A DNA stretch of 64,000 nt from a virus (taxonomy: Duplodnaviria > Caudoviricetes), in the IMG/VR virus record IMGVR_UViG_3300037247_001786, positions 396,979-460,978 of that record; one strand, given 5' to 3'. Both the position numbers and the translations under genes were made by a program. Position 1 is the first letter of the stretch. Each line of letters begins with the position of its first letter. A model generated the notes under the pieces. It had not been told where the DNA came from, searched no databases, and was given only the letters and a program-made list of their open reading frames with translations. Positions 2,216 through 22,193 of the stretch are shown here, one piece after another.

Positions 2216-2254
2216 TAATTTGCCAGAGTGATTATTTTTAAAGGTTATATGATT

Positions 2255-2569
2255 ATGGAATTAAAAGAATTAAAAAATGAAACTATATGTTCTGATTGTG
2301 GGGCTGTAATAACCTCTGAATCAAGGAGCAATTTTCACACTAATGGTCACTGGAACGAATATCGAGAGTTTAAGTGCGGTAGAAAAATCCATTTTAGTCC
2401 TAACTTTATGAAGATTATCGTTGAGGTAGAATGTCCTAAAAACCCAACACAGAAACGTAAAATCGCGAAACAAAAAAGACTTGTAAAAGCTATCACTGAA
2501 ATGGTAAACAAGTCAAGAGTTACTAAAGAGTATAAAGAAAGACTCTTACGAGATATAAAATGGTGGTAA
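2255..2569 (+). CDS. hypothetical Cys-rich protein, ATG at element+35
   Basis: CSDC..C motifs; ATG is 35 nt after hexamer 2220. Confidence 0.75.
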   Translation: MELKELKNETICSDCGAVITSESRSNFHTNGHWNEYREFKCGRKIHFSPNFMKIIVEVECPKNPTQKRKIAKQKRLVKAITEMVNKSRVTKEYKERLLRDIKWW

Positions 2570-2838
2570 AATTTTTAATAAAATCAAATGTTTTTTATCA
2601 AGGACACGGTTCTAGTTCTTGTGGAACTTGCGAAGTAGAGTCAGAGCATAATAAAGAGTTATTAACTCTTTTTTTTCAGGCTCTTAAATCTGCTAAAATG
2701 ATAGAAGACTGGGTGACTATTTCTCAGATATGGTTATCGCAGGGTAAAGTTAATTTTGTATCTAAAACGAGTTTACAAGAAAATGGAGTTATCGCTTACT
2801 ATCATATTTGCCAGAGTGATAAAAATATAAACTTATAG
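2560..2838 (+). CDS. hypothetical protein
   Basis: reads through element 2808 (..HICQSDKNINL). Confidence 0.6.
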   Translation: MVVKFLIKSNVFYQGHGSSSCGTCEVESEHNKELLTLFFQALKSAKMIEDWVTISQIWLSQGKVNFVSKTSLQENGVIAYYHICQSDKNINL

Positions 2839-2872
2839 AATTGTTAATTGAAACTTATTGGAGTTTAAGACG

Positions 2873-3217
2873 ATGGGAACAAGAAAAAAAAGAAATAAGG
2901 ATATTTGGGATACCTCTAATTCGGATTGTCATGTTCCCTATACTGACGAAGACATAGAATTAATTCTTCATCAATTACCTATTCCTAGTAATTGTGAATT
3001 ACTGGGAAAAGCTTTAAAAAGGTCATCAGGAGCCATCCGACAAGTTTTTGAAAAAGCTTATATGCCTCATTCGGAAGCAAAAAATCTTACTGTTGGTAAA
3101 AATAGAGTTGAGAGTTCATATAATATACAGATACAAAAAATATCTAAAAAGCTGAGGCTTATTAGAGGGTATAACGTTTTTAAATACCAGGGCAAGAAAG
3201 ACTCTTACGAGATATAA
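2873..3217 (+). CDS. hypothetical protein, possible helix-turn-helix
   Basis: YTDEDIELIL..LGKALKRSSGAI pattern; GGAG SD. Confidence 0.65.
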   Translation: MGTRKKRNKDIWDTSNSDCHVPYTDEDIELILHQLPIPSNCELLGKALKRSSGAIRQVFEKAYMPHSEAKNLTVGKNRVESSYNIQIQKISKKLRLIRGYNVFKYQGKKDSYEI

Positions 3218-3272
3218 AATGGTGGTAATGAATTAGGTAATATCAATTTTAATTAGGTAAAGGAATTAGGTA

Positions 3273-3947
3273 ATGTCCAATTCAGCTTATATAGAAACAT
3301 TCAAAAAGACCAGTTTATGCTCTGGAGAAACTCATTTCATAATTGACGTACAAGACAATCATGGTTCGGTTTCTCTCGTCACTCCAGAAAAAGACATATC
3401 AGAAGAAGATATGGAACTTCTTCAATATGTCAGAAAACAAGTTGAGAATAGAGACGAACACGGTTCAGATTGTGATATTATATTTGATATATTTGAATAT
3501 ATTGATAGCGGCGAAATAGGGATTAACATAAACAATACCTATTATGACTGGGACGATATAAAAGAGTTTATGACTGGGGAAGAAGTAGAAATTTCTGAAA
3601 TAGATAGAATCAATCCTTTCTCGTTATTTTTTATTGGTGATACCATTTATACCAACGAGAATTATGACCTTAAAAAGGTGGAAAAAGCCGTAGGTATATC
3701 TAATGATATAATGCAAATCCTCAATAAATTGGCAAAAGATATTCTCGAAGTCGCCACATCGGTTCAACACCTATTAGTGTACGCTGCTAAAAAGATAGAA
3801 GCATTTGGCAACGAGGGGGTAGGAGTTGGAGACACCGCCACAGATGAATTGATAGCCGAATACTTGGAGAACAAGTTAAAAGGAAAATTCTCTAAGAAAG
3901 ATAGGTCGGAGATAGGGCAAGACTTCTATTATATGTATCATAGGTAA
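3273..3947 (+). CDS. hypothetical acidic protein
   Basis: 224 aa ORF; stop abuts element 3949. Confidence 0.8.
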   Translation: MSNSAYIETFKKTSLCSGETHFIIDVQDNHGSVSLVTPEKDISEEDMELLQYVRKQVENRDEHGSDCDIIFDIFEYIDSGEIGININNTYYDWDDIKEFMTGEEVEISEIDRINPFSLFFIGDTIYTNENYDLKKVEKAVGISNDIMQILNKLAKDILEVATSVQHLLVYAAKKIEAFGNEGVGVGDTATDELIAEYLENKLKGKFSKKDRSEIGQDFYYMYHR

Positions 3948-3983
3948 TTTGCCAGAGTGAAGAAAAATAAGGTTTATAGTATT

Positions 3984-4214
3984 ATGAACGCACAATTAGC
4001 GAATTTGTTTAGTTATATTAAGAACCTGACTGTTGTTGTTTTTTGGATAGATTCAACAGTTAAAGGAGATATATATCATCGTTTATCCGAAGTTAGAGGA
4101 GAAGATGATGAACTGAAAGCATTTTTTGACGATAATACAGATAGGTATGTTGACTTGTATAGTGTTGATTTTAATGATATAAGAGTTTATCAGAAAGTAG
4201 ATTGGTTAATATGA
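3984..4214 (+). CDS. hypothetical protein, ATG at element+35
   Basis: ATG is 35 nt after hexamer 3949. Confidence 0.7.
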   Translation: MNAQLANLFSYIKNLTVVVFWIDSTVKGDIYHRLSEVRGEDDELKAFFDDNTDRYVDLYSVDFNDIRVYQKVDWLI

Positions 4215-4702
4215 AAAAAGGTACACTAACAACAGTATTTGGCAATGTAACTAAACCTCAATTTAGCAATATGAGCGAAGTCGCTATTATCCCTCATTGT
4301 TGCAACACTCTCGGAGTTATGGGGGCTGGCGTTGCACTCGCACTCAAAAACAAATGGCCCGAAGTATATGAAACATATAAAAGACATCTTATGGGTCTCG
4401 GAAATGCTTCTTTTGTCGTTACAGAAGAACTTGACGAAAATGTAAGAGTTATGGTTGCCAATATGATAGGTCAAGATGGCACCGTCTCTGCTGACAATCC
4501 TAAACCTGTCAAGTATTGGGCTTTAGCCTCTGCAATGAAAATAGTCTTGGCAGAGTGTCAAGCATTCCCTAATTCGGTTATACATACTCCTAAATTCGGT
4601 TCGGATTTGGCTGGAGGGGACTGGAATTTCATCTTGGAATTGATAAGAGAAATCTGGCTCGAAAATGGTATTGATGTTATTGTCTATGAATTTAGAGGGT
4701 AA
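4211..4702 (+). CDS. Macro domain protein (Poa1p/DarG-like ADP-ribose hydrolase)
   Basis: IIPHCCNTLGVMGAGVALAL..WP and IHTPKFGSDLAGGDW motifs. Confidence 0.9.
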   Translation: MKKGTLTTVFGNVTKPQFSNMSEVAIIPHCCNTLGVMGAGVALALKNKWPEVYETYKRHLMGLGNASFVVTEELDENVRVMVANMIGQDGTVSADNPKPVKYWALASAMKIVLAECQAFPNSVIHTPKFGSDLAGGDWNFILELIREIWLENGIDVIVYEFRG

Positions 4703-4704
4703 TT

Positions 4705-5001
4705 ATGGTACCGTTAATCGAATTATGTACATGGCAAGGTTGTCAAGGCTGGCAAGGCGTTACTTGTTCTTGCGGAGCTACTCATAATATTATGGTTAAT
4801 AACCCCTGTTTTCATTGCGAAAGATGTGGGGGGTTTAATACTCTTTCTTGGTCTCATCACCAATTCTGTCACCGCAAACCAGATTATGGATGGAACAGGT
4901 CTGTTATAGGTTGGGCTATGAGAAATTACTCTTGGTATAGAGACTCTTTTAAAGAGACATCTATAATGTTAGAGAAGCTGAATAAGAGACTTGCATCATA
5001 A
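4705..5001 (+). CDS. hypothetical Zn-ribbon protein
   Basis: CSCG and CERCG motifs; stop abuts element 5003. Confidence 0.7.
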   Translation: MVPLIELCTWQGCQGWQGVTCSCGATHNIMVNNPCFHCERCGGFNTLSWSHHQFCHRKPDYGWNRSVIGWAMRNYSWYRDSFKETSIMLEKLNKRLAS

Positions 5002-5066
5002 TTTGCCAGAGTGACAAAAATTTAATCTTATGTGAGTGTTGATAATACTTATATTGAGGAACAAAA

Positions 5067-5420
5067 ATGAAAGAATTTCATAAAATTACAATAGGTTTTG
5101 TAGTACAAAAGTATACAACACTTGATAATGATACAATGATATGCACCGAACAAACTTTTGTAGCTGGCGATCAAGTTACCTATGAGGATTTAGAGGGTAA
5201 AGTTATTGAAGTTGACCCCAATAAAGAGGTTTGTTGTCCTTTCGGAATGCGAACACCGAGACCTATACCTAACACCGAGTTTGAACGATGGTATGCCTCT
5301 ATGAAAAGAGATAGTGGACTTCATCTACATTTTAGGGATGTTCTTGATATGAATCCCGACTATGAACTGACTTTCAGAGAATGGGCTAAAAAGTATTATA
5401 AAGAGGCAGTTGATATTTAA
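5067..5420 (+). CDS. hypothetical protein
   Basis: GAGG SD after element leader. Confidence 0.8.
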   Translation: MKEFHKITIGFVVQKYTTLDNDTMICTEQTFVAGDQVTYEDLEGKVIEVDPNKEVCCPFGMRTPRPIPNTEFERWYASMKRDSGLHLHFRDVLDMNPDYELTFREWAKKYYKEAVDI

Positions 5421-5438
5421 TTATCGCGGAAAAATATA

Positions 5439-5597
5439 ATGGCTAAAAAGAAGATAAATAAATGTAGACACTTTAATGATGATGGTAAAGAGATTACTAC
5501 TCCCTGCGAACATAAAGACGATGATGGTTGCTGCGGCTTGCCTAGTTCAGAGGGATGGATGGTTAAATGTCCTGGCAATGAAAATTATACGAGATAA
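5439..5597 (+). CDS. small Cys-rich protein (52 aa, not in ORF track)
   Basis: MAKKKINKCRHF..; GCGGA SD. Confidence 0.55.
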   Translation: MAKKKINKCRHFNDDGKEITTPCEHKDDDGCCGLPSSEGWMVKCPGNENYTR

Positions 5598-5599
5598 CT

Positions 5600-5884
5600 A
5601 TGAAAGTAGATATAGAAATTACAAAAGATTGCTATCTCATTCTCTGTTTAGGTATGGGTAATGTAGATATACTTCCTGATTTAAATAAAAAGGGTAAAAT
5701 CTATAAAGATGTTGAGTATGATGAGAGTATTAAAAAAATAACATCTTTAGACCTTAAAAAAGAATTAGAGAAACATGGAGTAGGAATAGCTTTTATGGCT
5801 GATACCAATTATGAATATGAGAGTATAATTTTACAATGCCCTCAAAGTGCATTAGTTCCTGTTGGATGTTTCAAGATAATATAA
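5600..5884 (+). CDS. hypothetical protein
   Basis: stop abuts element 5886. Confidence 0.7.
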   Translation: MKVDIEITKDCYLILCLGMGNVDILPDLNKKGKIYKDVEYDESIKKITSLDLKKELEKHGVGIAFMADTNYEYESIILQCPQSALVPVGCFKII

Positions 5885-5955
5885 TTTGCCAGAGTGTTAA
5901 AAAATAACTCTTATATAGGTAGTTAGTTAATAATTACTTATATAGGAGTTTTCTT

Positions 5956-6720
5956 ATGGGCTGGATGTTCACATTTGATCATACAAGTCGATCACGTTGT
6001 ATCGACGATAGGATTAAGGATTGGGATACAAGACCTTTTCTAAAAGAAGAAGATAAGGTATATCATCTATCTACCTGTTTAAAGCAATGTTATAGGGGCA
6101 ATGCCTATTCTGGTGTACTTTGGAGTGTTCGAGAGACAAAGGAATATGACAGGTATACCGACCAGTTGGTACGTTCTGAATTGTGGATAGCTTGTGACCT
6201 GTTAAGATATGATAATAAGGACAAATGTTGGGGATATAAGGATATGTCGGAGAGTGTTGGTCCGAATAGTTATTCTTGTCCTCTTTCTTATCTTGACATG
6301 GTACCTATCCCCAAAAGCGAATATGCCGCTGGATGGAGAGAAGAAGTAAAAAAGTACCACGCAAGTAGAATACCCTCTTTTAAGGTTAAAAAAGATAGTT
6401 TTGTACTTTTAAAAGAAAACTATGGGATTAGAATTTTTAAAATAACCTCATTAAGACCTTTAAAGGGGATAGTTGGTAGTAAAAGAGAATATAGTATCCC
6501 TAGAAAGTCTCTTCTTCGCGAAATAACAAAAGAGGAAATAGATCAAGCGAAGAAAGAATATCAAGAACACCAAGACGGTGGAGAGTGGGGCGAGTGTGCG
6601 GAACAAGGAAGTAGAAGTAAGAATAAAGAGGATGCAATTCTTTATTATAATGATTTCTTATTTGCCAGAGTGAAGAAAAATATAACTTATACGAGTGTTG
6701 ATAATACTGATAATTCATAA
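5956..6720 (+). CDS. DUF6927-like phage/plasmid protein
   Basis: MGW.F start and WGYKDMSESVGPNSYSCPLSYLD motif; C-terminus reads through element 6662. Confidence 0.6.
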   Translation: MGWMFTFDHTSRSRCIDDRIKDWDTRPFLKEEDKVYHLSTCLKQCYRGNAYSGVLWSVRETKEYDRYTDQLVRSELWIACDLLRYDNKDKCWGYKDMSESVGPNSYSCPLSYLDMVPIPKSEYAAGWREEVKKYHASRIPSFKVKKDSFVLLKENYGIRIFKITSLRPLKGIVGSKREYSIPRKSLLREITKEEIDQAKKEYQEHQDGGEWGECAEQGSRSKNKEDAILYYNDFLFARVKKNITYTSVDNTDNS

Positions 6721-6731
6721 AGGATAAAATT

Positions 6732-7040
6732 ATGGGTGCAAATTTTGATTATCAAGTACTAAAAGACCAGAAACTCGAATTGACAGATGAAGAAATCGAG
6801 AAACATGCAGAAGAACTGTTTGAGCATTCTGCTTATCTTTATGGGCACGCTGGATATTCTGGTACGTTAGCTGAAAAGACTGGTGAAGGGGTTACTATCC
6901 ATAGAGATAAGACTTTTGAAACGGATGAGGAAGCGAGTAAATATGTTCTTGATACTCTTGATAACGACAAATGGGGTCCAGCGGATGTAGTCCCTATTGA
7001 GGGTAGAGGTTGGTTTATTGGTGGATGGTGTTCATCTTAA
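6732..7040 (+). CDS. hypothetical phage protein
   Basis: YGHAGYSGT..KWGP..GWFIGGWCSS. Confidence 0.8.
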   Translation: MGANFDYQVLKDQKLELTDEEIEKHAEELFEHSAYLYGHAGYSGTLAEKTGEGVTIHRDKTFETDEEASKYVLDTLDNDKWGPADVVPIEGRGWFIGGWCSS

Positions 7041-7059
7041 TTCTTATTGGAGATATATT

Positions 7060-7248
7060 ATGATGGCTATGGCTTTTATAAAATTTATGTTTGTAGTATT
7101 CTTGTTAGTAGGTTTCCTATCACTGATACTCTCTATATTGGAGTATTTTGGAGAACATATTACTCCTTTCCATAAGAAATATACTTTTGGAGCATGTGCG
7201 GTATCATGGCTTATGGTTATTTCTCTTGCATTGGCATCAGGGGCATAA
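7060..7248 (+). CDS. small membrane protein (2 TM)
   Basis: two hydrophobic stretches; stop abuts element 7250. Confidence 0.7.
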   Translation: MMAMAFIKFMFVVFLLVGFLSLILSILEYFGEHITPFHKKYTFGACAVSWLMVISLALASGA

Positions 7249-7314
7249 CTTGCCAGAGTGGTAAAAAAACAGTCTTATAGAAGTGTTAATAATAACACTG
7301 AATAGGAGTATAAA

Positions 7315-7959
7315 ATGGGAAAAGTAAAACCTACAAAAGAAGTAAAATGTCGTTGCGGTAAAAACTCTATTGTCGAGTTAATTCCAGCAGAAGGATATGT
7401 AAGGGTCACTCCTTTCATGTGCGATTGCGGTAGAACATTCCTTATCAGCGATTACGTTAATGCCATGACTACATATGGAGAGGTAGAACATAAACAATAT
7501 GATGAATTTCTTGAAATGCAAAAAAAAGATGCGACAAGGAAAAAAGTAAGAGATACATCGGATGAAGGACGTAGAAAATATCAATTAGTAGACAAGTGGT
7601 TAAATAGCCTATCAATAGATGCTATAAGTAGAATTGAGGCTCAAAGAGTCTTTACCCAAACTATTGATAAAGAGTTTGTTATCGAAACTATTCTTGAACA
7701 TTGTCGATATGAAGATGATTTATTGGAGAGATTATATGGACAATATCTGGCATGTAATGCTATCTCTATGATGACTACGGATAAAAGAGAGTGGTTTATA
7801 CTAAAAATGGTAGGTTGCGTAGAACCAGTATTAGTAGGTCCAATTTCTACAGAAATAGAAATGAAAGAGCGTTTGGAGAAGTATGCAGATGACCCTAAAG
7901 AGAGTCAGAACTCTCATACTTATTTTTCCGCAAAAAAAGATGCAGATATAAGATTTTAG
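7315..7959 (+). CDS. hypothetical protein with N-terminal Zn ribbon
   Basis: CRCG..CDCG; AGGAG SD. Confidence 0.8.
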   Translation: MGKVKPTKEVKCRCGKNSIVELIPAEGYVRVTPFMCDCGRTFLISDYVNAMTTYGEVEHKQYDEFLEMQKKDATRKKVRDTSDEGRRKYQLVDKWLNSLSIDAISRIEAQRVFTQTIDKEFVIETILEHCRYEDDLLERLYGQYLACNAISMMTTDKREWFILKMVGCVEPVLVGPISTEIEMKERLEKYADDPKESQNSHTYFSAKKDADIRF

Positions 7960-8033
7960 TATTTGCCAGAGTGGTAAAAAAATAGTCTTATAGAGTTGTA
8001 AAGTTAATGTTATAAATTCGATTGGAGAAACAA

Positions 8034-8834
8034 ATGGACGGTTTAATGATTGACACAAAAGACAGCGGTATCGTAACAATAGAAAGAGCATTTTCTATTC
8101 CTGTTCCCGAAGAAACAAAGACGTACAAGCCTGTCGGTAATGAGGCTCTTTGGAAAATGCTCCAGAGAACTGCCAATGTAAGAGGGCTGGAGTTAGGTAC
8201 TCCTGAAATGGGACTCGCTCAAAAGGGACAGCGACTTTTTGGTCAAGTCGAGATTGTCAATCAAGACCATCTTGATAACGAAGTTCGTTTGATGCTTGGT
8301 TTCCGTAACAGCTATAACCGATCGATGTCAGTCGGAATCTGTTTCGGAAGTAAAGTTTTTGTATGTTCTAATATGTGTTTTACGGGATATACTTCTGAAG
8401 ATGAGGATGCGGTAGGTCAAGTTCATCATCGTCATCAAGCAAATGTATGGGAAGGGCTGCAAGAACGACTTAATGAGGCTTTGGATAAGTTCGAGGTATT
8501 CAAGAGCTATCAGAACGACTTTTACAGTAAGCTGAAAGAAAACGAGTTAACGGATGCGGAAGCCCATGATTTGATTATCAATTCAGTTCGGCATGAAGCA
8601 ATTACGGCTAAAGATTGTTTCACAGTTGCCGAAGAATGGGCGTTCCAGAATAGAGGCCCGCAAGATGATAGCGAAGAAGATAGATGGCATAAAGAATTCC
8701 TGCCCAGAAACGCTTGGAGCCTCTTCAATGCTTATACCGAGATACATAAGGGATTTCAGATAAAGAACCCCCTTGAAGCGAATTTGAGGTCTATCAAGAT
8801 GAATAAGTTCTTTCATAACCAGTTTATGAGTTAA
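8034..8834 (+). CDS. DUF932 family phage/plasmid protein
   Basis: FRNSYNRSMSVGICFGSKVFVCSNMCF and NAWSLFNAYTE motifs. Confidence 0.85.
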   Translation: MDGLMIDTKDSGIVTIERAFSIPVPEETKTYKPVGNEALWKMLQRTANVRGLELGTPEMGLAQKGQRLFGQVEIVNQDHLDNEVRLMLGFRNSYNRSMSVGICFGSKVFVCSNMCFTGYTSEDEDAVGQVHHRHQANVWEGLQERLNEALDKFEVFKSYQNDFYSKLKENELTDAEAHDLIINSVRHEAITAKDCFTVAEEWAFQNRGPQDDSEEDRWHKEFLPRNAWSLFNAYTEIHKGFQIKNPLEANLRSIKMNKFFHNQFMS

Positions 8835-8840
8835 GACAAA

Positions 8841-8875
8841 GAAGGGGAAGGACATCGAAAGTTCTTCCCCTTTTT
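8841..8875 (+). terminator. intrinsic terminator
   Basis: GAAGGGGAAGGAC/GTTCTTCCCCTTTTT hairpin after 8834. Confidence 0.85.
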
Positions 8876-8908
8876 GCCAGAGTGGTAAAAATTTAATCTT
8901 ATAGTAGT

Positions 8909-9029
8909 ATGATGAGGCAGTCGGCGGAAAGAGAGTTGCCGTCAGAGCAAAGTTGCGGTCGAACCTACTCAAATATCGTAAAGTGCCTTGCAAGGAAACA
9001 TGATATTCTTTGCCTGCCTCGTTTTTTTT
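8909..9029 (+). ncRNA. candidate small RNA, copy A of a 3-member family
   Basis: sole content between elements 8874 and 9041; closing stem GAGGCAG/CTGCCTC then T8. Confidence 0.6.
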
Positions 9030-9075
9030 GTAATAGTATTTTGCCAGAGTGGTAAAAATTTAATCTTATAGTATT

Positions 9076-9138
9076 GTAGGATGTTCGAGAATTAACGCAT
9101 TCGTGGTGAAAGCCCATTTGAATATCCTGCATATTTTT
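9076..9138 (+). ncRNA. candidate stem-closed small RNA
   Basis: GTAGGATGTT at element+35 pairs with AATATCCTGC (9121-9130), then a T run. Confidence 0.45.
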
Positions 9139-9303
9139 GAAGTAATGAGGTAGTGGCGGTAAATGGTCAAGCTAGCCAATGTCCGATTGCATACGATTTA
9201 CGCATTATGCCTCCTCATTTTTTTTGAAGTAATGAAGTAGTGGCGGTAAGCGACGAACTGCTATCCGATTGCATACGACTCTATGCCTACTTCATTATTT
9301 TTT
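9139..9303 (+). ncRNA. two tandem candidate small RNAs, copies B and C
   Basis: shared GTAATGARGTAGTGGCGGTAA..TCCGATTGCATACGA..TATGCCT..TCATT, each followed by a T run. Confidence 0.65.
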
Positions 9304-9403
9304 ACACTGAAAAAAGATATTGTATAACCAGTATGTAATTTATTATCGGACGTTAAAATAGCATAAGCTGTTTTCGTATATATTGTTAAGTTGGAGTAGT
9401 ATT

Positions 9404-9703
9404 ATGTGTAAGTTAGAATTTTTGGACAAGCATTTAGTATCACTGATAACGATTGTTATCTTGGCAGCAGTACTATTTGCGACAAGTGGTTGTGGGGTAG
9501 TCGATGGGGCTTTGCAAGATATAGCTGGGACAGCTACTGCTTTAAGAGAAATCTCTAAGCCATTAGAAGAGAGAGCAAGAGCTAAAGATGCAGAAAGAAA
9601 TGCAAAGTGGCTTACTATCTGGACTATGCAACAGGAAGATTATAAAGAGATAGGGCATGAACCTAAAAAATTGCCTAAATTTCTTAAATTTGGTAAGAAA
9701 TAG
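9404..9703 (+). CDS. putative lipoprotein
   Basis: hydrophobic N-region with lipobox-like TSG-C; GGAG SD. Confidence 0.7.
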   Translation: MCKLEFLDKHLVSLITIVILAAVLFATSGCGVVDGALQDIAGTATALREISKPLEERARAKDAERNAKWLTIWTMQQEDYKEIGHEPKKLPKFLKFGKK

Positions 9704-9789
9704 ACATTAACAAAAGAGGGTAGTCATATTCTTTTGAGTATTACTATCCTCTTTGTTTTTAATATTAAATTAATTTTAGGAGATTTATA

Positions 9790-9936: not shown

Positions 9937-10050
9937 GGGGTATACGATGGAGATTTACTTTTATTTTCCCTTAACAGTTTTATTTTTTATGAATGTCGTG
10001 AAGAAAATTTTCTAATTGCCAGAGTGGTAAAAAAATAGGTTTATAGTAAT

Positions 10051-10179: not shown

Positions 10180-10180
10180 A

Positions 10181-14433: not shown

Positions 14434-14467
14434 AAGTGTTAATAATAACACCGAGTTGGAGTTTATA

Positions 14468-14821: not shown

Positions 14822-14874
14822 AGAAAAAACTAATTTACAGAAGTGTTAATAATAATTTAATTGGAGATAGTAAA

Positions 14875-15165
14875 ATGAGTGTAACAAAGATAATTACAGT
14901 AATGTTTTGTATTCTATCGTTGATCGTAGGATTCGTACTCGGCGGACTTGTTGATAATTTCCGTTATGAAACAGTTGTTGCGGAAAAAGACGCACTAAGA
15001 AAAGACCTATTGTATAACATAGGATTGCTTACCGTAACACAAGATGCTCTTATAAGTAGGGGGCGTGCTTTAGAAGAGGTTATATATGATAATATGAAAT
15101 ATTTCACGATAATAGAGGCGTATAAAAAGCGAGATAATTTCGACCCTAACGATTTGCCAGAGTAG
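14875..15165 (+). CDS. N-terminally anchored membrane protein
   Basis: TM helix; ends LPE* in element 15154. Confidence 0.75.
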   Translation: MSVTKIITVMFCILSLIVGFVLGGLVDNFRYETVVAEKDALRKDLLYNIGLLTVTQDALISRGRALEEVIYDNMKYFTIIEAYKKRDNFDPNDLPE

Positions 15166-15217
15166 CGTTTTTTCTATCTTATAGAAGTGTTAATAATAAC
15201 ACTGAATAGGAGTAATA

Positions 15218-15664
15218 ATGAATTATAAATATGAATGTTCTTGGAGTCCTCACGACGGTTGGCATTTTTCTTTAGGGAAAAAAAGATTATGGGAAGCCAG
15301 TACAGGATATATAGTTGCGGAGATTCACACTTGGAGAGAATACTCGGAAGATAAACTTAAACCTGGACAAAAACATGAGGGGTATAGAAACCACGAACAT
15401 TTTACAGAGTTGGAAGATGCTCTTAACTTTATGAGAACAGGAGAAATCCCTACTTATTATATCGTAAATAGTCGTTTTCAGCCTTTAAGCTATTTTGCCT
15501 CTAATGATTTCGTTACGAAAAAACAGCTTAGATTTAGAAAAAGAGATTGTATCTCTTATAGAAACAAAAAAGAGGCACTAGAATATTTGGCTATCATTCA
15601 AAGTGAATGTAGACAAAAAGGACAAGCACAATCATTAAAAGTAAGTACTTTATGTAAATGGTAA
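15218..15664 (+). CDS. hypothetical protein
   Basis: AGGAG SD. Confidence 0.8.
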   Translation: MNYKYECSWSPHDGWHFSLGKKRLWEASTGYIVAEIHTWREYSEDKLKPGQKHEGYRNHEHFTELEDALNFMRTGEIPTYYIVNSRFQPLSYFASNDFVTKKQLRFRKRDCISYRNKKEALEYLAIIQSECRQKGQAQSLKVSTLCKW

Positions 15665-15703
15665 AAATTTGCCAGAGTAGTAATTTTTCTATCTTATGGT
15701 ATT

Positions 15704-15949
15704 ATGAAAAGAAAACAAGATAAACGAAGAAGAAAACAACGGGCAAAGATTGTCCTTAACTTAACCCAAAAGGTTTTGGATAGTCTTGCTCGGTTAGCAG
15801 TAGGAAAGACACCACCAGAGATCGTCAAGGCTCACGTCGCTTACTATGATACTTGCAACACCGCAGAGCAATTAACCCTTATGGGTATATTCAAAAAAGA
15901 AGAAGATAAAATAATGACAGATATAGCTGAATTTTTTGCGGAGAAATAA
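15704..15949 (+). CDS. hypothetical protein, ATG at element+35
   Basis: no SD; ATG is 35 nt after hexamer 15669. Confidence 0.7.
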   Translation: MKRKQDKRRRKQRAKIVLNLTQKVLDSLARLAVGKTPPEIVKAHVAYYDTCNTAEQLTLMGIFKKEEDKIMTDIAEFFAEK

Positions 15950-15950
15950 A

Positions 15951-16118
15951 ATGGGATTACCTATAAATGGTGTCGTAAATGCTGCTGGCGAAGTATGTAT
16001 CAATACAAAAGATTTGTTGCTATATCTAAATGAGCCTAAAAATAAAGACTTAACAAGAGAAAAAATATGCCTAGTGATAGAAGCGTTTACTAAGGGGATG
16101 CTAAAGAAAAAGTCATAA
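15951..16118 (+). CDS. small hypothetical protein
   Basis: GCGGAG SD; stop abuts element 16119. Confidence 0.7.
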   Translation: MGLPINGVVNAAGEVCINTKDLLLYLNEPKNKDLTREKICLVIEAFTKGMLKKKS

Positions 16119-16185
16119 TTGCCAGAGTGAAGAAAAAACTAATTTATAGAAGTGTTAATACTAACACCGAATAGGAGTATATAAA

Positions 16186-16524
16186 ATGAAGATAGATTAT
16201 TGGGGACTTATTAAGTTTCTTATCGTAGTAGCTATAATATCGTCGTTTATTTGGGCTGTATTTATCTGCGAAACAGGGTGGCATAAAACCACTATGAGAA
16301 CTGCCGACGCGAGAAATAAAGCGTATGCGATCAAGAATGACATCTACGAGGCGAGATTTCCCAAAACAGGAGATACGATAATTCTAAATGGGAAAAAGAT
16401 AGTTATATTGAAAAGTTATATCTGGAGTAGAGAAAGAAGATATGAAGTAAGACAAGAAGATGGAACCATAACCGATGTTATGGGTTCCGAAATCATAGAT
16501 ATAAAACCAATAAAACAGGAGTAA
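16186..16524 (+). CDS. membrane-anchored hypothetical protein
   Basis: N-terminal TM. Confidence 0.75.
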   Translation: MKIDYWGLIKFLIVVAIISSFIWAVFICETGWHKTTMRTADARNKAYAIKNDIYEARFPKTGDTIILNGKKIVILKSYIWSRERRYEVRQEDGTITDVMGSEIIDIKPIKQE

Positions 16525-16528
16525 TAAA

Positions 16529-16732
16529 ATGGAACATCATAAAATCGTAGCGGCAATGATACGAAAACAAGTAGAAGGCGAAGCCGTAAATAGTCACAAA
16601 TTTGGATATATGAGACAATTGGCTGTCGATTTTGCCGATTGGTATGACAAACAAAAGGAACTTTTTTGTCGAGAAGTATTCTTTAGTGGTTGCGGTATTA
16701 AAGAACACCCGTATGGAAAAACGCCAGAGTGA
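16529..16732 (+). CDS. small hypothetical protein
   Basis: AGGAG SD; ends TPE* in element 16721. Confidence 0.75.
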   Translation: MEHHKIVAAMIRKQVEGEAVNSHKFGYMRQLAVDFADWYDKQKELFCREVFFSGCGIKEHPYGKTPE

Positions 16733-16786
16733 TAAAATTTTAATATTATAGTAGTGTTAATAATAACACTAAATTGGAGTAATAAA

Positions 16787-17125
16787 ATGAAAAAAATAGT
16801 AAAAGTATCTTGTATGACAGTAGCGATAACCTTATTTGCGATGTCAATTATCTTCTTTATGGCTGGCAATCATAGATGTAACAGAGCCATGAAACTATAT
16901 GAACAAGTTACAGAAAGTAATCTAAAAACCGATAAGAGACTCGATGAAACTGCATCGGTAATAAAACAGATAGAAGATAGAGAAAAAATACGACCTCACA
17001 CCGTAGTCTTATTAAAACCTAATGAATTTGGGCTATGGGATGTAGAAGATATAAAACAATTTGAACAAGGGCAACAGAAAGAATTTATAGACTTTCTTAG
17101 AGGTAAACAAAATTTGCCAGAGTGA
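16787..17125 (+). CDS. membrane-anchored hypothetical protein
   Basis: N-terminal TM; ends LPE* in element 17114. Confidence 0.75.
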   Translation: MKKIVKVSCMTVAITLFAMSIIFFMAGNHRCNRAMKLYEQVTESNLKTDKRLDETASVIKQIEDREKIRPHTVVLLKPNEFGLWDVEDIKQFEQGQQKEFIDFLRGKQNLPE

Positions 17126-17148
17126 CAAAAAATATATCTTAACACTGT

Positions 17149-17377
17149 ATAACGAATAGTAATTTATGCCGGGAGTCGTAGAAGTAGAAACAGAGTAGCG
17201 GAATGCCGAACCCCCTTAAGCAAGGGCTTGACCGCGGGCGAAAGGTTTTTACCGAAGCTATTAGGGTAGATAGACGTACCCCTAATAGAAGCATAGAGAA
17301 AACTAACTAATAGTTGAGCTTGAACTGGGTTGACTTTCTCTTAAACTCTTAACGGGGTTCTCCTGGCACCATTTTTT
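17149..17377 (+). ncRNA. candidate ~210-nt structured RNA
   Basis: closing stem TGCCGGGAG/CTCCTGGCA, perfect 11-bp hairpin 17258-17287, 3' T run; follows element 17114. Confidence 0.6.
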
Positions 17378-17390
17378 GAGAAAGAAAGTA

Positions 17391-17768
17391 ATGAGAAACA
17401 GAAAAACACATGTAGATTTGCCCATAAAGATACCCCAAAATATACTTGATATATTGATAGAGTATCAAAACTGGAGAAAAGACCAGAGTAAATACCCTAA
17501 AGGGTATAAACTTGGAATGCTTAAAAAGCTAGATAAAGCATGTCTTAAATGGCATTTATACGCTGGTTGGGAAAGTATGGGTGGTTCTTTCTTTTTCCAT
17601 ACTAAAGTGGGTATTATGATTTATACTCATGTCAGTGGAAGTAAGCCTTTGAAAATTCAGCAATGTACTGATAAAGATAGTAATCCTTGGAATGGGGAAT
17701 ATCCTCGAACAGAAGAAATAGATAACTTTGTTTATCATTGGGATAAATACGAGCCTTTAATACTGTAA
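17391..17768 (+). CDS. hypothetical protein
   Basis: 125 aa ORF. Confidence 0.65.
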   Translation: MRNRKTHVDLPIKIPQNILDILIEYQNWRKDQSKYPKGYKLGMLKKLDKACLKWHLYAGWESMGGSFFFHTKVGIMIYTHVSGSKPLKIQQCTDKDSNPWNGEYPRTEEIDNFVYHWDKYEPLIL

Positions 17769-17902
17769 TTCTTCGATTTCTTTATTCTAGGGGAAGTGTA
17801 ACAACTTCCTCTTTTTTACGCGAAAATAAATTGCCAGAGTGATAAAAAAACTCTCTTATAGTATTGTAAACAATAACAATATTATTTTTAGGGAGTAAAG
17901 AA

Positions 17903-18286
17903 ATGAAAACGAAACAAGAAATCGAAAATGGAATGGCTCAATGTATTGGTACCGAAGGGTATCACTTCAATGGAATGTTTGGTAAAAACTTTGTCTACAC
18001 CGATGGTATCAAGTTTTTACTCGAATCGGCTAATGCCTATTGGCTATTGACTGCTATTTTCTCTTATAAGAGAACAGAAGATTTTCAAGTATGGACTTTG
18101 AAGGTCTCGAATGGCAAGGCAGTATTAACAATGAAAGAGGATACAAATACTCCCGTTATCGTCAAACAAGAAATACCTTATACAGATTTCCCACTTGACG
18201 AAATCGAAGTTTGGGCTATTAACGACCACAATTGTAACGGAGAGTATGGCGATCACGTCGTACTAATCTTGAAATCTGAATACTAA
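17903..18286 (+). CDS. DUF6876-like phage protein
   Basis: YTDGIKFL..ANAYWLL..FQVWTL..QEIPYTDFPL. Confidence 0.7.
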   Translation: MKTKQEIENGMAQCIGTEGYHFNGMFGKNFVYTDGIKFLLESANAYWLLTAIFSYKRTEDFQVWTLKVSNGKAVLTMKEDTNTPVIVKQEIPYTDFPLDEIEVWAINDHNCNGEYGDHVVLILKSEY

Positions 18287-18412
18287 AACTCCTTAAATGA
18301 GCGATAGGGTGGCTTGCCAGCGTAGGTAAGCCGCCTTATTCGTTATTGCCAGAGTGGTGTTTTTTCTATCTTATAATGATATAAAGAACAATAATTTTTG
18401 CGGAGAAATAAA

Positions 18413-18706
18413 ATGATAGATAAAACTGATGTCAAAAAGATAGTAACGACCAAACAAGATAACAAAAGGCTATTTATTCTTACAAGCGGATATTATAGTA
18501 AAACTTTGGACTATTTTCTTTTTTTAATAGATATAGCAAAAGAAAGTTTTCCTGAATTAGAACCAAAAGATATAAAAATAAACCATTATACAGGTAGATT
18601 CCATAAGGGGCAATGTGGAATAGAATTTAGTGTAGTATGTAAAAATGTACCTGATGGTTATGAAGAGTATGGCGATAGAATGGTTTGTACACATTATCCT
18701 ACATAA
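18413..18706 (+). CDS. hypothetical protein
   Basis: GCGGAG SD. Confidence 0.75.
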   Translation: MIDKTDVKKIVTTKQDNKRLFILTSGYYSKTLDYFLFLIDIAKESFPELEPKDIKINHYTGRFHKGQCGIEFSVVCKNVPDGYEEYGDRMVCTHYPT

Positions 18707-18727
18707 TAACCTTTATGGAGTAAGAAA

Positions 18728-19018
18728 ATGAGTAAAGAATACTGGATAGAAAGTCTCGGACGTATCGAGCTGCAAATGACAATGGAACAAGCCGAAATGG
18801 TGCCACTGTCTGGAGATGTGGAACACGGAGTTTGTCTCTTATCAAAAGAAAAAGAGATAATTGATCAATTGGATAAATATACTCCGAAACTGATAGCAGA
18901 ATGTTTATCAGAATATGGATGTTGGAATGAGGAGCAATTAAAAGACCATAAAGAGAATATATTACGTCTTTTATGGATGGCTGCATCTGATATTCAAGAA
19001 AAAGAATTGCCAGAGTGA
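18728..19018 (+). CDS. hypothetical phage protein
   Basis: GGAG SD; ends LPE* in element 19007. Confidence 0.8.
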   Translation: MSKEYWIESLGRIELQMTMEQAEMVPLSGDVEHGVCLLSKEKEIIDQLDKYTPKLIAECLSEYGCWNEEQLKDHKENILRLLWMAASDIQEKELPE

Positions 19019-19082
19019 CAAAAAATAGGTCTTATAGTATTGTAAAGAAAACAATAATAATAACTTTCTTGGAGTAAAGAAA

Positions 19083-19301
19083 ATGAAAACCGCAACACCG
19101 ACAAAAGAAAAAGCACAAGTATCAGCCAGAGAAATGAATGAAGCCGCTGCACTGATAAAAGAATATGGTCTCAATGAATTGGCTAAAGATTGTCGAAAAA
19201 AGTCAGTCGAAGCCGCTATGAAAACTAAAGGGATACTTTTTGTCGAAAAAGATGGTCCCGTTATGAGAGTTATTCAAGATATAAGAGATGCCCGTAGTTA
19301 A
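19083..19301 (+). CDS. small hypothetical protein
   Basis: GGAG SD after element leader. Confidence 0.8.
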   Translation: MKTATPTKEKAQVSAREMNEAAALIKEYGLNELAKDCRKKSVEAAMKTKGILFVEKDGPVMRVIQDIRDARS

Positions 19302-19302
19302 T

Positions 19303-19522
19303 ACGGGACTTACGAGAGGGACGATCCGCGACCGGGTGGTTATCGTCCCCACTACCGGAAGGGCAAACCCGCAGTCATTTAAGCTGCGGAAAGCCCAAAT
19401 GTGGGAGTTATTGACAGATAGAGTATATCGCGATGGCGATAATGCTCACGGATAACTCCAAATACCTTGAGGAAACCGCGAGTCGGCAACAAGACGGCAA
19501 TGATGCGGTTTCCTCTTTTTTT
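19303..19522 (+). ncRNA. candidate multi-hairpin RNA / long structured 3' region
   Basis: GC-rich stems GGGACGAT/ATCGTCCC, GGAGTTAT/ATAACTCC, GAGGAAACCGC/GCGGTTTCCTC plus T run. Confidence 0.5.
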
Positions 19523-19584
19523 GCCAGAGTAGTAATTTTTCTATCTTATGATATTGTAAAGAACAATATTTTAAGGAAAATATA

Positions 19585-19842
19585 ATGCCAGAAACAATTG
19601 ACATATCAAAAGAATATCCCACTGCACTAAAAGCAGAAAAAAGACGCATAAATATCTTAATATTAAGAAATATTAACCCTATAAAACGTCTTGATGGGAA
19701 AATGGCCTGTTACTCATTAGAGTATTGTTGGCTTAGGGATTCCGAGGATATTACTTCAGTACAAGGTAGCGATTTCTCCTATTGGACTAAAGCAGAGCTT
19801 AAATGGGATGAATGTTTATTCGATCAAGTTAATCTATTTTAA
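19585..19842 (+). CDS. hypothetical protein
   Basis: AAGGA SD. Confidence 0.75.
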   Translation: MPETIDISKEYPTALKAEKRRINILILRNINPIKRLDGKMACYSLEYCWLRDSEDITSVQGSDFSYWTKAELKWDECLFDQVNLF

Positions 19843-19881
19843 TAATTTGCCAGAGTAGGAAAAAATAAGGTTTATAATATT

Positions 19882-20076
19882 ATGAGACGATTAAACAAAA
19901 AACAAAAGAGACGAATTGATAGCTGGTTCAATAAAAACTGGAAAGGTGCTGGTAGCATCGGGGGAATAGATGATCTTCCCTATGATGTATATCAAGAATT
20001 AGAAGATATGAATGACTTTGAAACAATATGGCAACATACAAACAATTATATCATGGAAAAGGCTCTAAATGCTTAA
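19882..20076 (+). CDS. small hypothetical protein, ATG at element+35
   Basis: ATG is 35 nt after hexamer 19847. Confidence 0.75.
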   Translation: MRRLNKKQKRRIDSWFNKNWKGAGSIGGIDDLPYDVYQELEDMNDFETIWQHTNNYIMEKALNA

Positions 20077-20365
20077 AATCAAAATAACTTGGAACGGCGT
20101 TATATATGACGCTAAAGTCATTAGTGATTATAAGGTCGAGATATTAGATACAGATATAAACCAAACTATTGAACTCGATCAATGCAAACATTGTGGAGTC
20201 TGGTTATCCGAAGAAGAGGGCTGTTATGGAGACGGTTATTGCGATGGATGTGCTGCAATGTGTATTCACTGCGAACTCTATCATAACGCTGCTGATATGA
20301 TACCTCCAGAAAAAGATGGAGAAGAGTATGTATGTAAAGAATGTGATAGTAAATTGCCAGAGTGA
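20069..20365 (+). CDS. Cys-rich Zn-finger protein
   Basis: four CxxC pairs; ends LPE* in element 20354. Confidence 0.75.
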   Translation: MLKIKITWNGVIYDAKVISDYKVEILDTDINQTIELDQCKHCGVWLSEEEGCYGDGYCDGCAAMCIHCELYHNAADMIPPEKDGEEYVCKECDSKLPE

Positions 20366-20650
20366 TCATTTTCTGGTCTTATAGTATTATAAAGACGACG
20401 CATTTGGTACTGCGGTTTTTTTGCTCATTGAATAGATGATACCTAATAGTCTTACTGTAACAAAGTAAAATCGAGCTTAGGAAATCGAGCTTTTAGGAGA
20501 CAATGTCGCTATTCATACATTTTTGAATCCTTCTTAAGATTAGGCGGTAGTTAATTCTACCGTCTTTTTTTCGCGAAAATAAATTGCCAGAGTAGTAAAT
20601 TTTCTATCTTATTAAGGTATAAACAACGATAACCTTTTGGAGATAGAACA

Positions 20651-21127
20651 ATGAAAACAGAATGTTTAGTAATCGTCGATATGCAGCCAGATTTTAAGTC
20701 TGCCAATGATAGAAAAACAATAGATAATGTTCTCATACAAATCGAAAAAGCAAGGGAACAAGATATTCCTATCTTTATTTTAGAATTTATAAATCATGGA
20801 CAAACATCAGAAGAGATACAAGAGGCATTGGAGGGATATTATCAAGTATGGTTTATCGCGAAAGGCGATGACGATGGGTCAAGGGAGTTAATAACTTGTA
20901 TTCAAGATAATGCGTATATTGTTAACGATTTTATCGTTTGCGGAGTTAATATATGTGCCTGTGTTTATTGGACTATTAAAGGGTTATTAAAAGATTATAA
21001 AACCAGAATAACCGTTATTAAAGATGCTTGTAATGGTAAGTGGTCACACCATATCGACAATGACCAAACTTATAATGATTATGACTTACAAGATGTTTAT
21101 ACAAGCGATAGAGTATCTCTTGTATAA
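20651..21127 (+). CDS. isochorismatase/nicotinamidase-like cysteine hydrolase
   Basis: LVIVDMQPDF, CGVNICACV..T, VIKDAC motifs. Confidence 0.85.
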   Translation: MKTECLVIVDMQPDFKSANDRKTIDNVLIQIEKAREQDIPIFILEFINHGQTSEEIQEALEGYYQVWFIAKGDDDGSRELITCIQDNAYIVNDFIVCGVNICACVYWTIKGLLKDYKTRITVIKDACNGKWSHHIDNDQTYNDYDLQDVYTSDRVSLV

Positions 21128-21191
21128 ATTGCCAGAGTAGTAAAAAATTGCTCTTATAGTATTGTAAAACAATAATATTTGGAGTAGAAAA

Positions 21192-21998
21192 ATGAGCCTA
21201 ACAATAGAAGACCTAACAATAGAAGTAACTCGTAAATGTAATATGCAATGCGAACACTGTCTAAGAGGGCCAGCACAAAGAAAAACAATATCAGACCAGC
21301 ATATCTATAAGATACTTCAATTGATAGACGACGTAGGGACACTAACTATCACTGGAGGAGAGCCGACACTTGCAATGGATTCCTTAACCCAAATACAACA
21401 CTGTGTTCAGTATAATCGAGCCGACGTTGGCAGTTTCTATATGGTCACAAATGGCAAGTCGATCAATGTTGATGCACTGGCAGAGTGGGCAAATTATATG
21501 AGATTTGCCTGCCATGATAACGAACTTTCTGGAGTGGCTTTCTCGTTTGACCAATTTCATCTAAACACTTTTAATAACCCACAACTGGACAAACAAAAAC
21601 GTAATTATTATAGATTAAAAGATATAATAGAGAATGAATATGGGATTCTCGATGAACAAGGCTTTGCGGGGTTTATACGCAAACATTCCGATGATTCTTG
21701 GGGTTACGATTCATTACTGGCGGAGGGTAGAGCCGAAGATTTTGGAGTAAGAACTAACGACCCTAAAATATTCATAGAGGACATTTGGAAAGACAATATC
21801 AACTTTTCAGATAATATACTATATCTATCTGCTAATGGTTATATTGTTTCTGACTGCAACTGGAGTTACAAGAGTATAGATAGCGATAAACAGATAAGGA
21901 TTGCTCATATTGATGACATACAAAGTCAAGATGATTTGATTGAAGCTATAAGGACATATAATAAGAGAATGACACCACTAGTCGAAGCATTAGTATAA
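21192..21998 (+). CDS. radical SAM protein
   Basis: CNMQCEHC (CxxxCxxC), TGGEP, MVTNG. Confidence 0.9.
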   Translation: MSLTIEDLTIEVTRKCNMQCEHCLRGPAQRKTISDQHIYKILQLIDDVGTLTITGGEPTLAMDSLTQIQHCVQYNRADVGSFYMVTNGKSINVDALAEWANYMRFACHDNELSGVAFSFDQFHLNTFNNPQLDKQKRNYYRLKDIIENEYGILDEQGFAGFIRKHSDDSWGYDSLLAEGRAEDFGVRTNDPKIFIEDIWKDNINFSDNILYLSANGYIVSDCNWSYKSIDSDKQIRIAHIDDIQSQDDLIEAIRTYNKRMTPLVEALV

Positions 21999-22034
21999 TT
22001 TGCCAGAGTAGTAAAAAATAGGATTTATAGTATT

Positions 22035-22193
22035 ATGAAAGAACAACAAAAACAAAAAGTATTGAGACTTCTAAATGAAGCAAATGATATTCTCACTGAC
22101 GAAATCGCTGACGACGAAGAAATCGAAACACAAGACATATTTTGTCCTCTTGGAGAGGTTATAAGTAATGTCTATGATATTGATACAGAATAA
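22035..22193 (+). CDS. small acidic protein (52 aa), ATG at element+35
   Basis: MKEQQKQK..DEIADDEEIE.. Confidence 0.65.
   Translation: MKEQQKQKVLRLLNEANDILTDEIADDEEIETQDIFCPLGEVISNVYDIDTE

Follow-up and report, generated by a model that had tools for sequence, protein, structure and literature searches.

A repeated promoter-like element that mostly lacks the -11 adenine in a large sediment phage, with a small sigma family as its candidate reader

What reads an element that has the geometry of a sigma-70 promoter and a -10 hexamer without the usual adenine? The question is raised by IMGVR_UViG_3300037247_001786, a 460,978-bp caudoviricete phage record in IMG/VR (34% G+C, direct terminal repeats, marine-sediment assembly). 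The window analysed here is its last 64 kb, positions 396,979 to 460,978; window coordinates refer to this stretch and genome coordinates to the full record. A sequence-only reading of the window had noticed repeated TTGCCA hexamers and eight genes whose ATG lies exactly 35 nucleotides (nt) after the first base of the hexamer. It proposed that RNA starts at that position and that a dedicated phage factor or an unusual host sigma recognises the element. The element is called class B below, and its positions are counted from the first T of TTGCCA (idx 0); it spans to about idx 39. The phage has no close cultured relative, the identity of its terminase large subunit (TerL) being at most 25% in the phage collection, and near-identical DNA was not found in that collection. 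Its genes lie on the minus strand up to about 47 kb of the genome and on the plus strand beyond. Class B cassettes, made up of small genes, tRNAs and small RNAs, are packed in a block at genome 367-427 kb.

How uniform is the element? TTGCCA has 87 matches in the window against 25 expected. The genome has 68 exact copies of the longer motif TTGCCAGAGT; of these, 67 are on the plus strand, at genome 339,990-427,507. A profile scan with a position weight matrix (PWM) adds ten variants in which CT, TC, AT, AC, GT or CC replaces the TT of TTGCCA, which brings the genome total to 78 and the window total to 53, the latter agreeing with the number given by the sequence-only reading; 77 of the 78 copies lie on the gene strand. 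The consensus layout is (TT)GCCAGAGTR, an A/T tract, and yTTATAg.A.T|R. In the profile of the 68 exact copies, A at idx -2 and T at idx -1 precede an invariant idx 0-9. The sequence-only reading had called GAGT plus G or A after the -35 nearly invariant; GAGT proved to be invariant and idx 10 is G or A in 67 of the 68. Idx 13-18 is either an A tract or a T tract, the two being interchangeable across copies, and the profile then runs y24, T25, T26, A27, T28, A29, g30, A32, T36, A38 and A39. A purine after T at idx 35, seen earlier in the few copies checked, is general: idx 34 is T in 65 of the 68 exact copies and idx 35 is a purine in 67 of them (77 of 78 in the full set). Across this genome's copies the invariant upstream core is GCCAGAGT, not TTG. 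Conserved internal pairing was not found within the element. Few terminators stand between the cassettes, and some neighbouring copies have about 60 identical bases in common, which points to recent duplication. The array and its unusual members are as follows.

302..30568, plus strand: class B array of 53 co-oriented copies (PWM scan)
14063..14102, plus strand: copy with A at -11 (one of six with TATTAT or TATTAG), sigma-A-compatible
16721..16760, plus strand: variant copy ACGCCAGAGTG, without the TT of TTGCCA, with a TATTAT hexamer
25035..30030, plus strand: nine variant copies (AT, CT, TC, GT or CC for TT), all ahead of genes led by a Shine-Dalgarno (SD) sequence; they start at 25035, 25873, 26165, 26556, 27038, 27448, 28363, 29585 and 29991

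Does the downstream half correspond to a -10 hexamer? If idx 35 is the first base of the RNA, TTGCCA occupies -35..-30 and idx 23-28 occupies -12..-7. The spacer between the two is 17 bp, within the 17 +/- 1 of sigma-A promoters, and TTGCCA matches TTGACA at five of six positions in 68 of 78 copies, the TT being replaced in the other ten. At idx 23-28 the 78 copies read mostly TCTTAT (32), followed by ATTTAT (13), TTTTAT (5), TATTAT (5), ACTTAT (4), GTTTAT (4) and GGTTAT (3). The TTAT core is very regular, with idx 25-27 kept in 98-100% of copies and idx 28 in 90%. Position -11 (idx 24) is C in 38 copies, T in 30 and A in only six, and T-7 is present in 90%, so that the earlier description of an nnTTAT hexamer without A-11 is borne out. 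Flipping of the -11 adenine is the central melting step for most studied sigma-70-family factors. The housekeeping -10 calls for A-11 together with T-7, and most class B copies lack this pair.

Other registers were also considered. Reading TATAGT (idx 26-31) as the -10 demands a spacer of 20 nt, as had been pointed out, and less than half of the copies have T as the last base of this hexamer. No alternative register improves on idx 23-28: A in second and T in sixth position occur jointly in 36 of 78 copies at idx 26-31, in 31 at idx 28-33 and in 49 at idx 31-36. The last register would place the RNA start near idx 43, past the tRNA, the SDs and the ATGs that follow the element. A Bacteroidota-type TAnnTTTG, an archaeal TATA box with B recognition element (TATA/BRE), a T4 late TATAAATA, GTGACA-N17-TATTGT starting RNA at about idx 43, and a T7-like promoter that starts at G30 were rejected; each of them conflicts with the use of SDs, with the spacing, or with the positions of tRNA, SD and ATG. 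A generic sigma-70 scan showed no enrichment in the region (71 found, 76 expected).

The same genome offers an internal yardstick. A second set, class A, reads ttgaAAAGTGAtt-N10-(TGn)TAtAAT and has about 72 copies on both strands of the whole genome. AGTGA is fixed at -29..-25 in these promoters, even in copies without TTG. Leaderless genes follow eight of the 72, with the ATG 7-9 nt past the end of the hexamer. By this spacing the class B hexamer should end at idx 26-28 and thus be approximately idx 23-28. The TATAGT reading puts the class B ATG 4 nt downstream, a distance that class A never shows. Examples of class A are given here.

33779, 39440 and 44251 of the window, plus strand: class A promoters
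52493 of the window, minus strand: class A promoter
47199 and 358440 of the genome, and 27704 of the genome on the minus strand: class A promoters

Which genes start inside the element? All eight ATGs named by the sequence-only reading lie at hexamer+35, and each is the first start of an open reading frame (ORF) of 42-228 amino acids (aa). An SD-like AAGG, AGGA or TAGG stands 10-11 nt before six of the eight, as had been claimed.

2220..2259, plus strand: ATG at 2255, 104-aa ORF, AAGG at idx 20-23; the element fills the entire 39-nt gap past the upstream stop codon
3949..3988, plus strand: ATG at 3984, 76-aa ORF, embedded AAGG
10016..10055, plus strand: ATG at 10051, 42-aa ORF, embedded TAGG
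11151..11190, plus strand: ATG at 11186, 49-aa ORF, without SD-like sequence
12042..12081, plus strand: ATG at 12077, the first possible start of its frame, 228-aa ORF, embedded AAGG
15669..15708, plus strand: ATG at 15704, 81-aa ORF, without SD; its orthologue on the related contig L162 likewise starts at idx 35 of its own copy
19847..19886, plus strand: ATG at 19882, 64-aa ORF, embedded AAGG
22000..22039, plus strand: ATG at 22035, 52-aa ORF, embedded AGGA

Genome-wide, ATG occupies idx 35 in 15 of 78 copies, against 6.25 expected if the columns were independent, and 13 of these head ORFs of at least 42 codons (42-228). The 13 products are without homology to one another. G37 occurs only alongside A35 (16 of 36 copies with A35, 0 of 42 without, p=4e-7), and the frames opened at idx 35 in the copies that lack ATG have a median of about nine codons. 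The other genes start at idx 48-79 after a GGAG-type SD, and independent ORF starts were not found between idx 36 and 47. About one class B cassette in six (~17%) begins with an ATG fused to the promoter. Five or six of the ATG-35 genes have no SD, and three of the ATG-35 cassettes contain a single gene. With an SD embedded in some copies, at a distance from the ATG that leaves a 5′-partial SD in workable register, and with terminators sparse between the cassettes, translation from read-through RNA is expected as a second mode: ATG-35 genes with an embedded SD probably use it as well, and leaderless translation is probably not the only mode for this group.

Is the layout kept in other phages? 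A TerL alignment led to 70 viral loci, a metagenome scan with the box pattern to the contig L162, and the homologues of a phage sigma factor described below to the contigs L256 and L257. Searches of viral contigs with single proteins (sigma-2, a 592-aa early protein, a radical-SAM protein and TerL) gave no relatives, and a word-based search with sigma-2 found only sigma-2 itself. The box pattern gave single chance hits in viral contigs; among the matches listed for the metagenome scan, most were chance singles and one was the true relative L162. This 7.1-kb contig has homologues of window genes and eight copies of the same box. In two of the eight an ATG lies at idx 35, one opening the 88-codon orthologue of the gene at window 15704 and the other 16 open codons. 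The exact box of the present phage is not enriched in the relatives G001-G005. G001, a 548-kb record whose TerL is 62% identical, instead has the box TTTCCAGACAA, with 38 exact copies (a looser pattern raises this to 43) that are densely clustered on one strand at 157-188 kb. These copies keep the same A/T tract and a T33|A34 step, and 8 of 30 have an ATG at idx 34. L257 has six copies of TTTCCAGAGGT and L256 six copies of TAACCAGCATC, also given as TAACCAGCAT(C/A); in each contig one copy has an ATG at idx 35. T34 and a purine at idx 35 are present in 20 of 20 copies of L162, L256 and L257. In L256, idx 23-28 reads TATTAT, TATTAG or TACTAT in five of six copies, that is, a -10 hexamer with A-11 in exactly the predicted register.

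Four related lineages thus keep the class B layout, while the upstream box differs by lineage (TCCAGACAA, TCCAGAGGT, ACCAGCATC). Only CCAG is kept across the boxes, and the hexamers corresponding to TTGCCA are TTTCCA, TAACCA and TCTCCA. Because the box changes between lineages, it is taken to be phage-specific and lineage-specific. The earlier assignment of TTGCCA as the -35 element therefore stands in part: its position at -35..-30 fits the geometry, but TTG is not the conserved part, the core being GCCAGAGT within a lineage-specific box. The likeness of TTGCCA to a -35 hexamer appears to be partly coincidental. On the other hand, the comparison indicates that the sigma-70 geometry of the element is real and ancestral, and that A-11 was lost secondarily, in this lineage and to some extent in L257 and L162. 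TTGnAAGTGR..TATAAT, the class A type, is common to the relatives, L256 and L257 included. A shared class A beside divergent class B boxes is the pattern to be expected were class A tied to the host polymerase and class B to a phage factor that evolves rapidly.

At which base would the RNA begin? T|R is the classical pyrimidine-purine start signature, and the gene layout points to the same step. One class B copy is flanked by two tRNAs: tRNA-Glu ends 2 nt ahead of it, and tRNA-Phe has its 5′ end at idx 37. SD cores begin at idx 37 in two copies (genome 339990 and 393804), the earliest cores lying at idx 37-41, and G001 has SD cores at idx 37-39 in six copies (idx 37 or 38 in five). An RNA start at idx 38-41 is disfavoured because such early cores would be cut off; it would miss the adjacent SD or start codon in about one-fifth of the copies here and about half of those in G001. 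The RNA 5′ end probably falls within idx 32-35. Idx 35 is 7 nt past idx 28, and housekeeping sigma promoters begin RNA 6-9 nt beyond the -10 hexamer. I infer that idx 35 is most likely the single best start position, or that the start lies at most a few nt upstream; the proposal of a start at +35 thus draws support from tRNA-Phe, the SD positions, the class A yardstick and the layout in relatives. The RNA stem that had been reported to begin exactly at 9076 is the 13-bp closing stem of a fold at 9076-9142 (z=-3.4). Two units in the window begin at idx 35, and the stem at 9076 is a further line of support for a start there.

9041..9142, plus strand: class B copy and, behind it, a hairpin RNA (about 60 nt) with a 13-bp closing stem from idx 35 (9076) and a U-rich tail (folding)
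8874..9028, plus strand: class B copy followed by a structured, terminator-ended unit of about 115 nt from idx 35 (8909) (folding)

For the unit behind the copy at 8874, a small RNA is more probable than its nominal 48-aa ORF. Folding from idx 24 in search of 5′-terminal hairpins was uninformative, and no Rfam family was found within window 1-32000, the small-RNA-like units included. The small-RNA-like stretches (window 8909-9028 and 9076-9300) also include two tandem repeats of about 85 nt (GAAGTAATGAGGTAGTGGCGGTAA...CCGATTGCATACGA...), each ending in a terminator. As for the tRNAs, about 33 genes lie inside the class B block at genome 373482-385870, and class B copies follow a tRNA 3′ end by 2-8 nt at genome 373768, 379446, 382413 and 383667. 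ARAGORN also reports two odd tRNA-like genes with 2-base anticodons (genome 374206 and 382465).

What could read the element? A search of the full genome for sigma factors, which the sequence-only reading had suggested, found three proteins of the sigma-70 family. One is a FliA/WhiG-like sigma of 281 aa behind the class A copy at genome 47199. The other two, sigma-1 (193 aa, genome 384057-384638) and sigma-2 (187 aa, 384641-385204), stand in tandem directly behind the class B copy at 383997. Sigma-1 and sigma-2 match Sigma70_r4 (E=4e-6 and 5e-12) and, over their full length, TIGR02937 (E=4e-13 and 2e-13); these general TIGR02937 and region 4 models are the only ones they match. In an AlphaFold 2 model of sigma-1, a disordered linker connects two helical domains predicted with confidence; every top PDB match of the model is a sigma factor. 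Region 4 alone is recognisable against solved structures, and region 2 of sigma-1 is considered divergent for this reason. The family is narrow: a search of 1.84 billion representatives yields 43 relatives at E<=1e-3. A sigma-1 homologue and the CCAG-box class occur together in all three contigs with readable flanks (G001, L256 and L257), and the complete relatives G002 and G003 have neither. Like the boxes, the recognition-helix region varies from lineage to lineage; the four lineages do not suffice for statistics. The promoter of the sigma-1/sigma-2 operon is TTGCCA-N17-TATTAT, one of the six copies with A at idx 24. The L257 homologue is likewise preceded by TATTAT, and the G001 orthologue lies behind a canonical TTGCAA-N17-TGgTATAAT promoter.

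The phage encodes no detectable RNA polymerase, very divergent enzymes aside. RNA_pol_Rpb1_2 (PF00623) and Rpb2_6 (PF00562) have no match in the phage, with positive controls. The T7-type family PF00940 has none either, its control being uninformative, and a T7-type motif B/C pair was not found in the phage. The DFDGD motif has one match, in a 1761-aa protein, which looks like chance, and this search also yielded no plausible RNA polymerase. The idea of a dedicated phage factor thus gains from the three sigma genes, the lack of a detectable polymerase, the divergence of the box and the co-occurrence with the small sigmas. The host sigma-70 alone is unlikely to be the reader. The small two-domain sigma-1/sigma-2 family is the best candidate, one that I put forward with slightly less than even confidence. 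In L256, three or four small sigma-like genes are interleaved with tRNA genes at 2666-6809, where an ATG-35 class B cassette precedes one of them and class A promoters precede two; this suggests that multiplication of sigma genes is common in this phage clade.

The reading preferred here, tentatively, is that class B is the phage's own promoter, read by the host core polymerase carrying a small two-domain phage sigma. Region 4 of the sigma would read the box (TT)GCCAGAGTR at -35..-25, which is followed by the A/T tract at -22..-17 from the RNA start. The divergent region 2 would read the A-11-less hexamer t-y-T-T-A-T at -12..-7, in which T-12, A-8 and T-7 are kept and C or T takes the place of A-11. 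The conserved AG.A.T|R.T would span the RNA start, and the transcript would begin either with a leaderless AUG (13 genes) or with a 5′ untranslated region of 13-45 nt containing a GGAG-type SD. The host sigma-A could start the cascade through the TATTAT copy ahead of sigma-1/sigma-2, a bootstrap that is plausible because this class B copy has A-11. A wider version is a clade-private system in which the narrow small-sigma family opens A-11-less promoters and reads an 11-15 bp CCAG box, with box and recognition helix changing together; this is possible, and I regard it as rather doubtful.

Several observations count against the phage-sigma reading. AAGG, AGGA or TAGG at idx 18-24 is found in 7 of 13 ATG-35 copies and in 2 of 65 other copies (p=2e-5), and a second gene follows in 9 of 12 ATG-35 cassettes compared with 23 of 60 others (p=0.03). 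SD placement alone could account for genes starting either at idx 35 or from idx 48 onwards. The class B start site is itself a prediction. Palindromes beginning at idx 31-32 in two paralogous sub-families hint at a 5′ end a few nt upstream, and a stricter hairpin scan peaks at idx 31-32 rather than 35, mostly among paralogous copies. Sigma-1 and sigma-2 are themselves behind a class B copy. The co-occurrence of sigma and box covers few lineages and is confounded by their relatedness. The G001 element and the box-only array taken up below add to these points.

A separate phage DNA-binding activator that binds the box and recruits or remodels the holoenzyme, in the manner of the unrelated T4 MotA and with either host sigma-A or a phage sigma, is unlikely, and it would keep the start at about idx 35. 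The box spans 11-15 bp (TAAT+TTGCCAGAGTG), beyond the usual contact of sigma region 4, and at -35..-25 it overlaps the position of the T4 MotA box. In non-coding DNA at genome 368258-368452, which is 28.5 kb before the window, box-only copies alternate between forward and reverse orientation with a 92-bp period; this array comes after an 800-bp A/C-rich non-coding stretch and just precedes the opening gene of the class B block. G001 has an array of the same period and layout at 187141-187272, also ahead of its first block gene, and such an array in both orientations fits a stand-alone DNA-binding protein better than a sigma. Class A promoters, too, have a fixed AGTGA at -29..-25. A search for such an activator found none: MotA and AsiA (PF09158, PF09010) have no match in the phage at E<=1, and the 226-aa protein beside the array (genome 368552) matches no Pfam family, its single-sequence model being unusable (predicted local distance difference test score 34). 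An activator would also leave the melting of an A-11-less hexamer by sigma-A unexplained, and the near-invariant TTAT core suggests specific reading, not merely a weak -10.

Could class B be an ordinary host sigma-A promoter after all? The -10 would then be TATAGT (idx 26-31) or TAGTAT (idx 28-33) with a start at idx 38-41, and the ATG-35 genes would be SD-led and translated from read-through RNA only, their register being forced by the room for an SD and an ATG inside the motif. TATAGT matches TATAAT at five of six positions with an invariant A27, and in G001 the downstream block ATAGAAT (idx 27-33) gives CAGACA-N18-TAGAAT, which reads as a canonical promoter with a start at about idx 40. The enrichment of embedded SDs (p=2e-5) and the second gene usual in ATG-35 cassettes also count in its favour, and read-through is expected with so few terminators between cassettes. 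Yet in both registers only 46-50% of copies have T at the would-be -7 position, TATAGT needs its 20-nt spacer, and the generic scan for such promoters found 71 against 76 expected. The RNA would start inside tRNA-Phe, inside or after the SD of at least two genes here and six in G001, and too late to include the start codons of 13 genes in this phage and of 8 of 30 in G001. The three single-gene ATG-35 cassettes and the five or six ATG-35 genes without SD do not fit either. No leaderless ORFs occur at idx 38-42, whereas class A has them at the canonical distance in 8 of 72 copies, and the near-invariant T34/R35 is left unexplained. This reading is thus considered quite improbable.

That class B is no promoter at all, being either an RNA processing signal cut at T34|R35 or a recombination or shuffling boundary of cassettes, is very improbable: the copies do delimit cassettes very regularly, some neighbours share their ~60 identical bases and few terminators separate the cassettes, but the element has promoter geometry and no conserved internal pairing, its interchangeable A/T tracts at idx 13-18 are a property of DNA shape, the sister lineage has TATTAT at -12..-7, reverse-oriented boxes occur in non-coding DNA, and the copy between two tRNAs needs no extra processing signal there.

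How does the proposed phage-sigma promoter compare with known systems? In phage SPO1, gp28 and gp33/34 reportedly form a sigma cascade on the host core RNA polymerase. The present phage is similar in being large and without its own polymerase, in encoding sigma-family proteins, and in having private -35/-10 classes at standard spacing beside a host sigma-A-type class. It differs in that the sigma-1 family is separate and narrow (43 in 1.84 billion), sigma-1 being a candidate reader only, and in having a longer box, of 11-15 bp, that differs from one sister lineage to the next. The group-5 sigma factors TcdR, BotR, TetR and UviA of clostridia use a -35 TTTACA and a -10 GTTATA (PMC4031146). The nTTATA form lacks the canonical second-position A, as does yTTATA at idx 24-29 here, and these sigmas are small and two-domain, as are sigma-1 and sigma-2. 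In contrast, GCCAGAGTR stands here in place of TTTACA, and the register is off by one base if the class B hexamer is idx 23-28. Moreover, sigma-1 and sigma-2 have no specific family match, and the SRQ motif (PMC4031146) is not evident in sigma-1. By this comparison the parallel appears to be one of resemblance and not of membership.

T4 middle promoters combine a MotA box at -30 with a sigma-70 -10 and use AsiA. Class B resembles them in that a phage box overlaps or replaces the -35, in many copies ahead of pre-replicative genes and tRNAs. However, T4 retains a TAnnnT -10 with A-11, which is absent at -12..-7 in 72 of 78 class B copies, and homologues of MotA and AsiA were not found in this phage. 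Promoter-fused leaderless genes are known in Deinococcus-Thermus, Actinobacteria and Thermus phages. As in those, the start codon lies here at a fixed distance from the -10, and the mRNA should begin with AUG. Unlike them, the hexamer lacks A-11, and more than half of the fused genes have an SD embedded in the promoter spacer. Phage promoter classes, phage sigmas and leaderless phage genes are thus already known; what is distinct here is the large A-11-less set at canonical spacing together with a narrow sigma family.

The 78-copy A-11-less set and the sister lineage that retains the A constitute a natural experiment on changed melting specificity of a sigma. Taken together with the very small sigma family, the lineage-specific CCAG boxes would supply orthogonal promoter/sigma pairs in an uncultured group of phages of 460-550 kb. 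If true, a clade-private system would insulate the early regulon of each phage from the host and from co-infecting relatives. In annotation, the class B layout provides a practical rule for gene starts, small RNAs and transcription units in these genomes.

Some further features were seen around the elements. A k-mer search upstream of the remaining genes for another promoter class returned SD motifs, class A variants and a few GTCGATA only. The sequence TTTTTTCGCGAAAATAAA lies directly upstream of several class B copies (window 17819-17830, 20572-20583 and 23555-23566; genome 385904-385915) and is present in L256 and L257 too. A terminator-like hairpin (window 17789-17812) precedes at least one of these occurrences, and the sequence may represent either a common terminator tail or another upstream element. 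On the metagenome contig L221, five tandem units of 37-38 bp at 2054-2240 each start with TTGCCAGAGTAAAAATAAAG; this contig has 40% G+C and no protein similarity to the phage, and may be unrelated. Within the window, a DUF932 protein is encoded at 8022-8834, a radical-SAM-like protein at 21192-21998 within the class B block, and a run of glycosyltransferase (GT9, GT1) and methyltransferase genes at 53697-59706.

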